Assembly (NCBI GenBank): GCA_036785375.1
Contig: JAWMAR010000201.1
Location: 1,922,001 to 1,986,000 of the forward strand
Origin: Leucoraja ocellata
Lineage: Eukaryota
DNA length: 64,000 nt
Direction: 5' to 3'
The notes under the pieces are model-generated. The model saw only the letters and a list, made by a program, of their open reading frames with translations. It was not told the origin of the DNA and did not search any database. The first letter of the stretch is position 1. Each line of letters starts with the position of its first letter. Shown here one piece after another: positions 2,675 to 63,149 of the stretch. The position numbers were made by a program, and so were the translations under genes.

Positions 2675-2710
2675 ATCTACACGACCTAAAATTCGGTTTT
2701 GAAGAAACAG
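2675..2710 (+). CDS. Microexon, 36 nt: (D)[11 protein letters not shown]
   Basis: cccttttttttcag|ATCTAC...GAAACAG|gtcagt; the GAAACAG|gtcag end matches the 36-nt class. Confidence 0.8.
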
Positions 2711-62700: not shown

Positions 62701-63149
62701 GTGGGGAGGGGGGTGGGGAGGGGGGGTGGGGGATGGGGATGTGAGGAAAAGGGTTGGTGGAATGGGTTGGGTGAAGGGAGGTGTGGAGAAGGGGTGGTGG
62801 TGGAGGGGTTTGTGTGGGAGGGGGTATGCGGGAGGGGATGTGGGTGTGGGGGGTGTGGGATGGGTGCGTGGGGGAGAGAAGGGTGTGTGAGGGAGGGGAC
62901 TGTGTGGGAGGGGGGTTTGCAATATATGTCGTGACCGACTACGCGAGACATGTTCTAATACGTAGCATGCCACACGCTGACAAGAGTTGCCAAGTAACAT
63001 TTACATCCTTTTAAAGATTACATAGAAAATGATGGAGTAAACATTTTCCCAAATGTACGCAATATTCTGTATGAGGATCTATTGTATTTCACGTGGTACA
63101 TTGTTACCTTGTGTATTAACAGACGAACCAATACTTCAGCATGACGCAG
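2675..63149 (+). CDS. Partial multi-microexon gene (>=32 exons) encoding a long 21-aa-periodic coiled coil; both ends outside the window
   Basis: All exons AG..G|GT with lengths a multiple of 3, alternating 27/36 nt. Only the phase-1 frame is open in all of them (phase 0 has TGA in the 50113 exon; phase 2 has stops in the 19836, 36028, 38966 and 46596 exons). Hydrophobic residues fall at positions 4, 11, 14 and 18 of the 21-aa unit. Confidence 0.88.
2995..3290 (+). mobile_element. CR1 RT fragment
   Basis: [30 protein letters not shown]. Confidence 0.85.
3633..3659 (+). CDS. Microexon, 27 nt: ASKLNARNT
   Basis: tttattttcag|CAAGC...ATACAG|gtaaca. Confidence 0.7.
5575..5825 (+). mobile_element. 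SINE-like/retroposon tail (related fragments at ~5140-5310, ~23000-23250, ~26430-26530, ~32920-33030)
   Basis: cagtctgaagaagggtttcagcccgaaatgtcgcctatttcc..gatgctgctgcacccactgagtttctccagca motif recurring in both orientations. Confidence 0.65.
7180..7215 (+). CDS. Microexon, 36 nt: [12 protein letters not shown]
   Basis: tatttttcatgtcag|AATTC...GTATGG|gtgagg. Confidence 0.7.
7450..9130 (-). mobile_element. Decayed CR1 LINE
   Basis: Minus-strand [26 protein letters not shown] and VVEADT motifs. Confidence 0.8.
9400..10680 (+). mobile_element. CR1 LINE fragments (3' UTR followed by RT to 3' end)
   Basis: [29 protein letters not shown]; 3' UTR with gatcagccatga. Confidence 0.85.
10921..11120. 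other. Assembly gap (200 N)
   Basis: N run; flanks 10721-10870 and 11121-11268 are near-identical. Confidence 0.99.
11552..11578 (+). CDS. Microexon, 27 nt: DESLRTKDT
   Basis: tatacttatag|ACGAG...ACACGG|gtaaat; peptide resembles DEELREKDA. Confidence 0.8.
11900..12185 (-). mobile_element. CR1 fragment
   Basis: [36 protein letters not shown]. Confidence 0.85.
12260..13090 (+). mobile_element. GC/CpG-rich non-autonomous retroposon-like element
   Basis: Shares gggggtgggtgagggagaaaccgttt / cggcctaacatcg / gtcttccaccacag..gatgtttgtgttaaattt motifs with 16700-18960(-), 39000-39360 and 57460-57922. Confidence 0.7.
13681..13716 (+). CDS. Microexon, 36 nt: [12 protein letters not shown]
   Basis: tttcgcctcag|AATTT...AAAGAG|gtgaga. 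Confidence 0.8.
13745..14015 (-). mobile_element. tRNA-derived SINE (degenerate)
   Basis: Reverse strand begins gcagcacaatgacgcagctactggaact..ccagagaccccggttagatc (A/B-box-like head). Confidence 0.6.
14490..15450 (-). mobile_element. Highly decayed CR1 LINE
   Basis: Reverse complement resembles the CR1 RT and 3' end seen at 17600-18600 and 21100-22000. Confidence 0.65.
15751..15777 (+). CDS. Microexon, 27 nt: DALSIQKIK
   Basis: ttttgcctgggcag|ATGCA...TTAAAG|gtaata; weaker acceptor. Confidence 0.6.
17038..17158. repeat. 21-bp minisatellite, about 6 copies (cag[c/g]tccgagtcccgc[a/t]gc[c/a]t)
   Basis: Read directly from the sequence. Confidence 0.9.
17195..18605 (+). mobile_element. Young 5'-truncated CR1/HER1 LINE (ORF2 RT with two frameshifts, 3' UTR, (TTATATG)n tail)
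   Basis: [55 protein letters not shown]; frameshifts near 17590 and 18070. Confidence 0.97.
19709..19711 (+). CDS. Possible 3-nt microexon (ATG, adds one Asp in phase 1)
   Basis: atccttag|ATG|gtaaatgct after a long T-rich tract; occupies the otherwise empty slot between two 27-nt exons. Confidence 0.3.
19836..19862 (+). CDS. Microexon, 27 nt: ELEEKLKNA
   Basis: attatattgcag|AATTA...ATGCGG|gtaaat. Confidence 0.75.
20365..22010 (+). mobile_element. Two adjacent decayed CR1 fragments
   Basis: [20 protein letters not shown] motifs and 3' UTR. Confidence 0.8.
22128..22163 (+). CDS. Microexon, 36 nt: [12 protein letters not shown]
   Basis: ttttaaatttcag|AAAAG...AAATAG|gtgaga. Confidence 0.75.
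22229..22395. other. Assembly gap (167 N) followed by a CT-rich tract
   Basis: N run. Confidence 0.99.
22754..22780 (+). CDS. Microexon, 27 nt: EETLSLKET
   Basis: gtgcttccaaaag|AAGAA...AGACAG|gtaact. Confidence 0.7.
24814..24837 (+). CDS. Microexon, 24 nt (short variant in a 36-nt slot): EFSQCRID
   Basis: tctttttttctcgggttcag|AATTT...TTGATG|gtaagt (consensus donor). Confidence 0.7.
25932..25958 (+). CDS. Microexon, 27 nt: DEELREKDG
   Basis: tttgctttgttacag|ACGAA...ATGGAG|gtgtcg; 8/9 aa identical to the exon at 38966. Confidence 0.85.
27775..27810 (+). CDS. Microexon, 36 nt: [12 protein letters not shown]
   Basis: tcatttacttgcag|AAATA...AAACAG|gtcagt. Confidence 0.88.
28850..29460 (+). mobile_element. 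Decayed Rex1-like LINE 3' part
   Basis: tgcatcacagattggtttgggaacagctctgccc..; tail ttttactctgtacctcggt. Confidence 0.6.
29750..30285 (+). mobile_element. CR1 3' fragment
   Basis: [23 protein letters not shown]; 3' UTR. Confidence 0.85.
31213..31239 (+). CDS. Microexon, 27 nt: EYDLESKDA
   Basis: gcttctatttgcag|AATAT...ATGCAG|gtaaca. Confidence 0.82.
31644..31715. repeat. Perfect 24-bp tandem repeat x3 (aatgtatattccgtgtcacatatg)
   Basis: Read directly from the sequence. Confidence 0.95.
31830..33620 (-). mobile_element. Fragmented Rex1/Babar-like LINE
   Basis: [24 protein letters not shown]...IKCFERL (RT N-terminus); PRELTS..TAVYIP (endonuclease). Confidence 0.75.
33996..34031 (+). CDS. Microexon, 36 nt: [12 protein letters not shown]
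   Basis: tttatgtttgtttag|AACTA...TTTCAG|gtaagg. Confidence 0.82.
34700..35300 (-). mobile_element. Fragment of an REL-endonuclease non-LTR retrotransposon (HERO-like)
   Basis: [10 protein letters not shown]......DL.SMDA...SFLMRA.YDVL.SP followed by a [16 protein letters not shown] knuckle-like motif. Confidence 0.6.
36028..36054 (+). CDS. Microexon, 27 nt: DINKRSYVD
   Basis: ttctgttcccttag|ATATT...TGGACG|gtaagt. Confidence 0.78.
37060..37980 (-). mobile_element. Decayed CR1 LINE
   Basis: SC.TNLL.IFEEV...[22 protein letters not shown]. Confidence 0.8.
38036..38077 (+). CDS. Microexon, 42 nt (long variant in a 36-nt slot): [14 protein letters not shown]
   Basis: tgttcactttag|ATTGT...CGTCAG|gtaacg. 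Confidence 0.7.
38966..38992 (+). CDS. Microexon, 27 nt: DEELREKDA
   Basis: ttcactttgcag|ATGAA...ATGCAG|gtatgg. Confidence 0.88.
39000..40085 (+). mobile_element. GC-rich non-autonomous element head (39000-39360) followed by a Rex1-like RT fragment
   Basis: [19 protein letters not shown]; degenerate FSDD and TKELVLDFR. Confidence 0.7.
40472..40507 (+). CDS. Microexon, 36 nt: [12 protein letters not shown]
   Basis: tctttccaatttag|AAATC...AAACAG|gtcagg. Confidence 0.9.
40700..41520 (-). mobile_element. Rex1-like LINE remnant inside the duplicated unit (paralogous copies at 44180-44970, 46850-47160, 50370-50690, ~59540-59630)
   Basis: [36 protein letters not shown]...[10 protein letters not shown]. 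Confidence 0.8.
42388..42414 (+). CDS. Microexon, 27 nt: EEKMRLGKG
   Basis: tgtgtattaacag|AGGAA...AAGGAG|gtaaat. Confidence 0.85.
43323..43358 (+). CDS. Microexon, 36 nt: [12 protein letters not shown]
   Basis: tctttacaatttag|AAATC...AAACAG|gtcagt. Confidence 0.9.
44975..45620 (+). mobile_element. Chimeric insertion: CR1 ORF1-like piece (44975-~45220) fused to a young Rex1-like RT piece
   Basis: [20 protein letters not shown] (CR1 ORF1 SGNH-like motif); [54 protein letters not shown]. Confidence 0.85.
46045..46071 (+). CDS. Microexon, 27 nt: DGSMHQKEA
   Basis: tgtgtaataacag|ACGGA...AAGCAG|gtaaat. Confidence 0.85.
46596..46631 (+). CDS. Microexon, 36 nt: [12 protein letters not shown]
   Basis: ctttccattttag|ATATC...AAACAG|gtcagg. 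Confidence 0.9.
47605..47631 (+). CDS. Microexon, 27 nt: DEIMRQREA
   Basis: tgtgtattaacag|ACGAA...AAGCAG|gtaaat. Confidence 0.88.
48910..49730 (-). mobile_element. Penelope-like element RT fragment
   Basis: [45 protein letters not shown]. Confidence 0.9.
50113..50148 (+). CDS. Microexon, 36 nt: [12 protein letters not shown]
   Basis: cttccattttag|AAATC...AAACAG|gtcagg. Confidence 0.9.
51126..51152 (+). CDS. Microexon, 27 nt: GGNIHQNET
   Basis: tgtgtattgacag|GGGGA...AAACAG|gtaaat. Confidence 0.8.
52836..52967. mobile_element. Short foreign segment beginning with a hAT-like terminus, at a deletion junction
   Basis: caagggttcccaaccaggggtaaatttacc.. interrupts the unit consensus (ttctaaca|tcacc in paralogs). 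Confidence 0.5.
53419..53445 (+). CDS. Microexon, 27 nt: DEPMHQNDT
   Basis: tgtgtattaacag|ACGAA...ACACAG|gtgaat. Confidence 0.82.
54281..54329. repeat. 12-bp tandem repeat x4 (gttctgtctgca)
   Basis: Read directly; sits at an internal deletion junction of the unit. Confidence 0.85.
54837..54875. repeat. Perfect inverted repeat, 17-bp arms and 5-nt loop
   Basis: tcccttctactctactt-cacgt-aagtagagtagaaggga. Confidence 0.95.
55219..55254 (+). CDS. Microexon, 36 nt: [12 protein letters not shown]
   Basis: ctttcttttctag|ACGTC...AAGCAG|gtcagg. Confidence 0.9.
55350..55955 (-). mobile_element. Gypsy LTR-retrotransposon pol (RT) fragment without LTRs
   Basis: [45 protein letters not shown]. Confidence 0.9.
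56464..56490 (+). CDS. Microexon, 27 nt: DGKMRQYEA
   Basis: tatgtattaacag|ACGGG...AAGCAG|gtgaat. Confidence 0.85.
57460..57922 (+). mobile_element. 5'-truncated GC-rich non-autonomous retroposon with (TTGTA)n tail
   Basis: Absent from the paralogous site at ~54090 (catatcatgaaatactattaggccg); tail gacaaataaattgtattg.. Confidence 0.8.
59284..59319 (+). CDS. Microexon, 36 nt: [12 protein letters not shown]
   Basis: ctttccattttag|AAATC...AAACAG|gtcagg. Confidence 0.9.
60191..60217 (+). CDS. Microexon, 27 nt: DETTRQKEA
   Basis: tgtgcattaacag|ACGAA...AAGCAG|gtaaat. Confidence 0.86.
62434..62469 (+). CDS. Microexon, 36 nt: [12 protein letters not shown]
   Basis: ctttccattttag|AAATC...AAACAG|gtcagg. 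Confidence 0.9.
62527..62918 (+). repeat. G-rich low-complexity tract (GGGG/GTG)
   Basis: Dense G-runs replacing part of the unit's intron. Confidence 0.9.
63123..63149 (+). CDS. Microexon, 27 nt: DEPILQHDA
   Basis: tgtgtattaacag|ACGAA...ACGCAG|gtagat. Confidence 0.82.

Follow-up and report, generated by a model that had tools for sequence, protein, structure and literature searches.

The window analysed here, a stretch of 64,000 nucleotides on one contig of the Leucoraja ocellata assembly, contains 30 micro-exons called with a combined splice-site and amino-acid model between positions 2675 and 63149, 13 of them 36 nt and 17 of them 27 nt long (Table 1). They form part of a much longer run, array C, which extends from about -315,679 to +193,241 in window coordinates (~510 kb), comprises 201-214 called 27/36-nt exons (~2,050 amino acids) and is closed by a terminal exon for a B30.2/PRY-SPRY domain at +194,208 to +194,728, 130-190 kb downstream of the window exons. 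The micro-exons supply most of the coding sequence (~2,050 of ~2,230 predicted residues). Five sibling arrays were found, and 621 exons were called over the six arrays of this one genome.

Table 1. Features of the array C slice, in window coordinates
Feature	Position	Strand	Remark
Array C slice	1..64000	+	continues beyond the window on both sides
36-nt micro-exon, phase 1-1	2675..2710	+	
27-nt micro-exon	3633..3659	+	
36-nt micro-exon	7180..7215	+	
27-nt micro-exon	11552..11578	+	
36-nt micro-exon	13681..13716	+	
27-nt micro-exon	15751..15777	+	lowest model score of the window
27-nt micro-exon, twin pair member 1	19836..19862	+	110-nt intron between the twins
27-nt micro-exon, twin pair member 2	19973..19999	+	
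36-nt micro-exon	22128..22163	+	
27-nt micro-exon	22754..22780	+	
Probable 31st exon, 24 nt, phase 1-1, ends in G	24814..24837	+	splice-only score 21.5; each of the 15 minus-strand decoys scores lower
36-nt micro-exon	27775..27810	+	
27-nt micro-exon	31213..31239	+	
36-nt micro-exon	33996..34031	+	
27-nt micro-exon	36028..36054	+	
Possible 42-nt exon, uncertain, in the slot of a 36-nt exon	38036..38077	+	below threshold in splice-only scoring
27-nt micro-exon	38966..38992	+	
36-nt micro-exon, opening the recently duplicated 3-3.7-kb units	40472..40507	+	
27-nt micro-exon, duplicated unit	42388..42414	+	
36-nt micro-exon, duplicated unit	43323..43358	+	
27-nt micro-exon, duplicated unit	46045..46071	+	
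36-nt micro-exon, duplicated unit	46596..46631	+	
27-nt micro-exon, duplicated unit	47605..47631	+	
Dead acceptor-side copy of a 36-nt unit, AG lost, without exon	48386..48553	+	
36-nt micro-exon	50113..50148	+	C2012 copy: 55-nt intron deletion swaps donor for a weaker one
27-nt micro-exon	51126..51152	+	no 36-nt exon before the next 27-nt exon in both region copies
27-nt micro-exon, duplicated unit	53419..53445	+	
36-nt micro-exon, duplicated unit	55219..55254	+	
27-nt micro-exon, duplicated unit	56464..56490	+	
36-nt micro-exon, duplicated unit	59284..59319	+	
27-nt micro-exon, duplicated unit	60191..60217	+	
36-nt micro-exon, duplicated unit	62434..62469	+	
27-nt micro-exon, duplicated unit	63123..63149	+	

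All 30 called exons are multiples of 3 in phase 1-1 and end in G, as the original prediction had stated, and none of the 435 ordered exon pairs gives a stop at the junction, the junction residue being D, E, G or A; its arithmetic that any subset of these exons stays in frame is therefore right for the window. The probable 24-nt and the possible 42-nt exon are symmetric too. The order departs from strict alternation (LsLsLsssLsLsLssLsLsLsLssLsLsLs, where L is 36 nt and s is 27 nt), and N stretches at 10921-11120 and 22229-22395 hide sequence from exon calling. Splice-site weights were approximate in the first scans and trained on the arrays in later ones. An unbiased spectrum of AG..GT lengths, which uses the intron-side signal only and no frame, stop or last-base rule, gave a plus-strand excess over the minus strand only at 27 nt (11 vs 1 in the window, 86 vs 11 in the whole array) and 36 nt (8 vs 4 and 68 vs 22), with no excess at 21 nt (15 vs 11) or at lengths that are not multiples of 3 (602 vs 644). 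Phase 1 is the open frame, stops occurring in 6 of 86 candidates of 27 nt and 5 of 68 of 36 nt, compared with 27-49 in the other phases.

The terminal exon matches SPRY (PF00622) with 56.1 bits against a cut-off of 26.3 (E 5e-15), and its best match among solved structures is the BTN3A1 B30.2 domain (E 2e-26), with further PDB matches to TRIM21 and pyrin. In a quick tree of 62 rows (4 own-genome sequences, 7 family hits and the even-numbered among the first 110 hits), it falls in a separate, long-stemmed clade of sharks, rays and chimaeras with a support of 100, although the family group was picked by similarity and its clustering is partly by construction. Database relatives are named TRIM39/58/69-like or zinc-binding protein A33-like, and no full-length relative of the family was seen among the longer proteins searched, which is weak evidence. 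The family looks invisible to annotation: the database models found cover only the last exons and carry TRIM names without TRIM-defining domains, and no description of it was found in the literature, as judged by titles and abstract openings. An orthologue model from Narcine, 77% identical in the B30.2 domain, joins matching micro-exons to that domain, its pieces corresponding in the same order to exons at +81445, +81667, +84036, +88307, +109077 and +193215.

Exon-intron units of 3-3.7 kb with 65-80% identity are duplicated across 40-69 kb, suggesting that the array grew by tandem duplication of exon-plus-intron units. As a sign of function, both splice dinucleotides (AG and GT) and an open frame are preserved in 19 of 20 duplicated units (simulated P 4e-5 to 2e-3). 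Since such duplication requires symmetric phase, skippability needs no separate cause and is likely to be a by-product of this growth. When two copies of the region were compared, the exons differed at 5 of 1,206 bases (4 of the changes silent) and the introns at 1,102 of 77,287 (P ~6e-4); the window exons are under purifying selection. Recent duplicates had pN/pS values of 2.0 (range 0.65-13.5) and 1.06 (0.54-2.3), with too few sites to call selection, and the Pro+Gly content of the 27-nt duplicates was 11.2% compared with 2.9% elsewhere. In the C2012 copy, the replacement donor of exon 50113-50148 scores 6.2 rather than 11.3; because this lies within the range of real exons, loss of that exon is not claimed. 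The underlying deletion was not seen among the joints listed (15 of 19) for DNA runs X1-X3, whose contigs cross introns, and is unconfirmed.

Taken together, the reading that we favour, at a probability of roughly 65%, is that the window exons belong to a rod gene that was enlarged by duplication, in which most exons are included, single exons are skipped occasionally and skippability is incidental. The micro-exons, probably joined in one continuous transcript, would encode a segmented coiled-coil stalk of ~2,000 residues, predicted to be dimeric, which carries a B30.2 binding domain. Hydrophobic residues occupy positions 2, 5 and 9 of the 12-residue exon (a/d/a) and position 4 of the 9-residue exon (a). 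Such a stalk might serve as a spacer or tether that keeps the B30.2 domain at a distance, its length being set mainly by the number of exons in the genome.

A different view, unlikely on present evidence, is that skipping is regulated and combinatorial, cells choosing exon subsets to build rods of set length as a ruler or diversity generator. Ending in G is not universal in array C (of 208 calls, 15 have A or C as their last base and none has T), but its 214 calls include no T-ending exon, and every skip in this gene is thus stop-free, as had been predicted. Single micro-exon skips are annotated in the orthologue and three paralogues, which agrees with the predicted alternative skipping; its enrichment for pairs did not appear, since the internal isoform differences among current database models are 9, 9, 9, 9 and 6 amino acids and none of the five is a 21-residue pair. 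One older Callorhinchus model has a register-keeping 7-residue gap, which counts against the duplication reading. So does the Narcine model, which is far shorter than the array over the same span: of the exons called here, seven between +88307 and +109077 and most of the further ones up to +193215 are missing from it, which could mean that several exons are skipped at once and not that the exon number differs. The pN/pS values of the recent duplicates, without sign of amino-acid constraint, could also be taken in favour of combinatorial skipping. As for the heptad register, a single skip shifts it in 28 of 28 cases, as expected, and skipping an adjacent pair keeps it in 23 of 27; the genomic order itself breaks register, with units of 21 amino acids in only 9 of 12 cases in the window (3 of 12 off) and 55 of 81 in the array. 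Some of the other units outside the window may partly reflect missed exons.

Several observations weigh against regulated skipping. The splice sites are strong (on average 11.7 pyrimidines of 17, with consensus donors), and the UGC motif, which is associated with SRRM3/4 micro-exons, is no commoner than in decoys (80 of 383 exons vs 1,040 of 4,385 decoys); phase symmetry, moreover, is already explained by duplication. The sibling arrays tolerate T-ending exons (9 of 621 calls over the six arrays): 8 of the 9 stand before an exon that yields a sense codon (185 of 606 in the case of other exons; Fisher P 6e-4), and for 6 of those 8 dropping the next exon gives a stop. Because these exons need the next one to avoid a stop, selection appears to track the constitutive order, although this evidence comes from the siblings and not from array C. 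Several of the nine T-ending exons are related copies. A related-species RNA run (X6, ~6% of reads) showed no depth on the B30.2 exon or five window exons and is uninformative on expression. The ruler claim would matter greatly if true; the evidence favours the plain duplication explanation.

It is less probable still that the array encodes the cytoplasmic tail of a butyrophilin- or BG-type membrane receptor whose Ig and transmembrane exons the assembly has lost or put in the wrong place; skipping would then set the distance between membrane and B30.2 domain. Heptad micro-exons followed by B30.2 are the butyrophilin tail layout in the portions of the published accounts used here (PMC4046983, PMC5938342), the closest solved structure is that of BTN3A1, and arrays start or end near assembly gaps. 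Gene boundaries are uncertain, because neither 1.0 Mb upstream on C201 nor ~0.38 Mb on C253 revealed the N-terminus and because such gaps cut off arrays A, B and C253a; an assembly gap lies at about -489 kb. However, no gap interrupts the stretch in which array C starts, 20 kb away from a sibling array in head-to-head orientation, and no Ig, RING or B-box motif of the gene was present in the 1.26 Mb scanned. A Pfam analysis of low-repeat frames close to the array starts, covering the 150 longest of 291, gave no Ig family match above cut-off and no RING or B-box of the gene, and none of 74 matches to the butyrophilin IgC family (PF22705) lay on C201 or C253, with small doubt left by assembly gaps. 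A scan for transmembrane segments gave nothing beyond weak hydrophobic candidates, which are probably pyrimidine tracts in translation. Separately, an NLR-B30.2 fusion was rejected, as the LRR exons are in phase 2, end in a terminal-type LRR and belong to a locally repeated gene; the NACHT exon 21 kb before sibling array A is a neighbouring gene's. Least probable of all, the duplicated exons would be a selfishly amplifying or decaying run, and normal transcripts would start at internal promoters and use just the final few exons plus B30.2: the named database models are all short (172-460 amino acids) and pN/pS in recent duplicates is near or above 1, but exons 130-190 kb upstream of B30.2 would hardly be under purifying selection between region copies, nor 19 of 20 duplicated units intact.

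With ~200 micro-exons in one gene and 621 over six arrays, these genes lend themselves to studying how the spliceosome manages to include long series of 27-36-nt exons, and the same arrays could show whether frame symmetry is ever exploited.

Among known systems, butyrophilins such as BTN3A1 and TRIM proteins likewise carry a C-terminal PRY-SPRY after short heptad segments, and TRIM/BTN genes have a 27-nt exon before B30.2 and a phase-1 terminal exon. Like butyrophilins, the gene has short symmetric heptad exons that lead into a terminal exon for B30.2; unlike them, it has ~2,000 residues instead of a few heptads, and no Ig, RING or B-box was found. Chicken BG genes also derive a long predicted coiled coil from many tiny exons with split first codons. 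In the sections of the BG and zipper protein reports drawn upon, exons of 21 (sometimes 24) nt follow IgV and transmembrane exons, without B30.2 (PMC4046983, PMC5938342); exon number ranges from 13 to 36 between genes of the same build (PMC4046983) and differs between genes and haplotypes, and splice variation alters tail length via truncating intron read-through (PMC4046983, PMC5938342). Here, by contrast, the exons are of 27/36 nt and number ~200, B30.2 stands at the end and no Ig or transmembrane exon was found. The micro-exon genes (MEGs) of Schistosoma mansoni, as described in the relevant part of PMC4015677, encode small secreted parasite proteins whose coding sequence consists largely of symmetric micro-exons, any of which can be dropped in frame, and whose transcripts were shown to skip exons, giving up to seven variants. 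The present gene is a giant vertebrate coiled-coil/B30.2 gene, for which the evidence of skipping is confined to database isoforms of relatives, each differing by a single exon. It is an improbable idea that cartilaginous fish possess a vertebrate counterpart of such diversity genes, in the form of several genes of half a megabase, each holding 150-200 micro-exons that can be skipped. By splicing, cells would make from them rods that are tipped by B30.2 and have a cell-specific length; if so, splicing would set the reach of an innate-immune-type sensor over hundreds of nanometres.

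A plain acceptor-donor scan for AG-GT pairs showed two length peaks, 27 and 36 nt, both confined to the + strand. When the scan was repeated with the intron-side signal alone to avoid circularity, only these two lengths were in excess (27 nt, 11 vs. 1 on the + and - strands of the window and 86 vs. 11 in the whole array; 36 nt, 8 vs. 4 and 68 vs. 22), phase 1 was the open frame of the candidates, and lengths not divisible by three showed no + strand excess (602 vs. 644). A trained exon model, whose threshold was set from opposite-strand decoys, called 30 window exons, of which 13 measure 36 nt and 17 measure 27 nt; each has G as its last base. 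The original prediction had described exons of phase 1-1 and lengths divisible by three, ending in G, whose junction codons could never be stops, and had held that heptad register is broken by skipping one exon and kept by skipping a pair. This description was borne out: the junction residue was D, E, G or A in all 435 ordered exon pairs, the register shifted in all 28 single skips, and it was kept in 23 of 27 skips of two adjacent exons.

The window covers C201:1,922,001-1,986,000 of a 3.4-Gb genome. In its coordinates the array of this gene (array C) starts near -316 kb and stops near +193 kb; 201-214 exons were called in it, amounting to ~2,050 residues. In the 12-residue exon, positions 2, 5 and 9 are hydrophobic in 92%, 91% and 82% of cases; with position 4 of the 9-residue exon (70%) they make up a heptad pattern spanning 21 residues. 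Beside these units, twin 27-nt exons with 100-140 nt of intron between them yield 18-residue units, a heptad stutter (7+11). In addition, second acceptors and tandem donors may offer further in-frame length variants.

Features of the array, its relatives and its neighbours (window coordinates unless a contig or locus is named)
Feature	Position	Remark
15-nt AG..GT candidate	16185-16199	strong donor
Twin 27-nt exons	19836-19999	also at many array places
Probable 24-nt exon	24814	symmetric
Doubtful 42-nt exon	38036	symmetric
Second in-frame acceptors; tandem donors	40481, 68277; -49600, -48114	acceptors 6 or 9 nt into 36-nt exons; donors 12 nt apart
Terminal exon, B30.2/SPRY	194,208-194,728	phase 1; array's 3' end
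27/36-nt array, same contig (C201)	-777k to -490k (+)	~130 exons, with next row 60-70
27/36-nt array, same contig	-336k to -488k (-)	head to head with array C gene, 20 kb apart
Paralogous arrays, other contigs	C253 738k-1,099k (-), 1,870k-1,926k (+); C3233; C3305	same-clade B30.2 ends, 37-46% identity
Near-identical exons	beyond gap at C253:1,107k	opposite strand
NACHT-LRR genes, locally repeated	L101:760-2493 (+); copies near -865k and -832k	directly upstream of array A
Upstream neighbour exons	-985k to -900k	presumably DCAF8-like, Na/K-ATPase alpha, a GPCR, EHD-like GTPase
Downstream neighbour exons	+236k to +261k	presumably Kv1 channel, Shisa-like

The nearest solved structure to the terminal-exon domain is BTN3A1. 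The domain's closest database relatives are proteins of a chimaera, sharks and rays that carry the names TRIM-like or zinc-binding protein A33-like; a quick tree places them with three paralogues of the same genome in a single group on a long stem (support 100). In the Narcine orthologue model, whose B30.2 is 77% identical, pieces matching six downstream micro-exons, in the same order, are joined to that domain, which supports a single gene. There are five sibling arrays: C253 and the contig of array C carry two each, and C3233 has one. The pair sharing array C's contig face one another, with an assembly gap at -488.9k between them; they represent either sibling genes without 3' ends or pieces of a single larger gene in which a block is inverted.

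We consider it about 65% probable that the micro-exons would encode a segmented coiled-coil stalk tipped by B30.2, with a length set mainly by the number of exons in the genome and splicing that would be mostly constitutive, a single exon being lost now and then. Judging from its family, the protein may act as an intracellular sensor or tether.

Regulated combinatorial tuning of exon sets, the ruler of the original prediction, is permitted by the architecture and appears unlikely. The array has grown by duplication of whole exon-intron units. Since a duplicated or lost unit would survive only if symmetric, every exon would be expected to be skippable even if skipping were never used. G before the donor is the usual vertebrate consensus, and AA, AG or GA opens 68% of exons, so that a final T is already ruled out by constitutive reading. 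T-ending exons (9 of 621 calls across arrays, all in sibling arrays, some being related copies, and none in array C) precede an exon with a safe start in 8 of 9 cases, compared with 185 of 606 for other exons (P 6e-4); a final T is thus tolerated where the next exon starts safely, and skipping that exon would create a stop in 6 of the 8. Heptad register is not kept by genomic exon order: 9 of 12 units in the window and 55 of 81 in the array have 21 residues, a 36-nt exon is absent between 51,152 and 53,419 in both copies of the region, and the 27-nt duplicates are Pro- and Gly-rich (11.2% vs. 2.9%). In database models of four family genes, which span just the 3' ends and were compared with N-terminal start differences not counted, internal isoform differences were 9 residues in the Narcine orthologue (its last 27-nt exon) and 6 and 9, 9, and 9 residues in the others, with an additional 7-residue gap in one older model. 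Skipping therefore probably occurs singly, and the paired 21-residue form is unsupported. On the other side, many array C exons lying between matched ones are absent from the Narcine model, which might reflect multi-exon skipping.

That the array is a receptor tail whose Ig exons are missing is improbable, as no Ig belonging to the gene was found in the 1.26 Mb examined, nor RING or B-box, and none of 74 butyrophilin IgC matches fell on these contigs. The N-terminus was not found in the sequence examined, and several arrays stop at assembly gaps. NACHT-LRR exons were rejected as this N-terminus; they are phase-2 exons of a neighbour gene upstream of array A (a sibling array), which we take to be NLRC3-like, and the genome has at least 150 close NACHT matches. 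In human 1q23, DCAF8 and ATP1A2 lie together in an MHC-paralogous region.

The micro-exons are functional, and a mostly unused array is very improbable. Contig C2012 carries a second, ~98% identical copy of the region, presumed to be the other haplotype. Between the copies, 39 exons showed 5 differences in 1,206 bases, 4 of them silent, against 1,102 in 77,287 intron bases (P about 6e-4). Both splice sites and the open frame were kept in 19 of 20 recently duplicated units at 40-69 kb (simulated chance, 4e-5 to 2e-3). No amino-acid constraint was visible among recent duplicates (pN/pS 2.0 and 1.06, wide ranges). At 42388-63149 the pN of the 27-nt duplicates (0.36) exceeds the divergence of their intron flanks (0.19-0.23), with Pro and Gly gained. 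Relaxed or diversifying selection may be involved, CpG effects being another possible cause.

Literature searches turned up no paper on this micro-exon B30.2 family; the accessible text of PMC12841164 deals with ordinary butyrophilins, among them ones from cartilaginous fish. The array C gene shares its B30.2 end with butyrophilins and TRIMs but lacks, within the 1.26 Mb, the Ig domains of the former and the RING/B-box of the latter. Its build from many tiny split-codon exons resembles chicken BG tails, for which the available portions of PMC4046983 and PMC5938342 give a variable 13-36 per gene. In schistosome micro-exon genes, which work by the kind of exon skipping originally predicted, skipping has been demonstrated in transcripts, according to the accessible part of PMC4015677. 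Its architecture is real and unusual, a variant of the heptad-exon/B30.2 layout.
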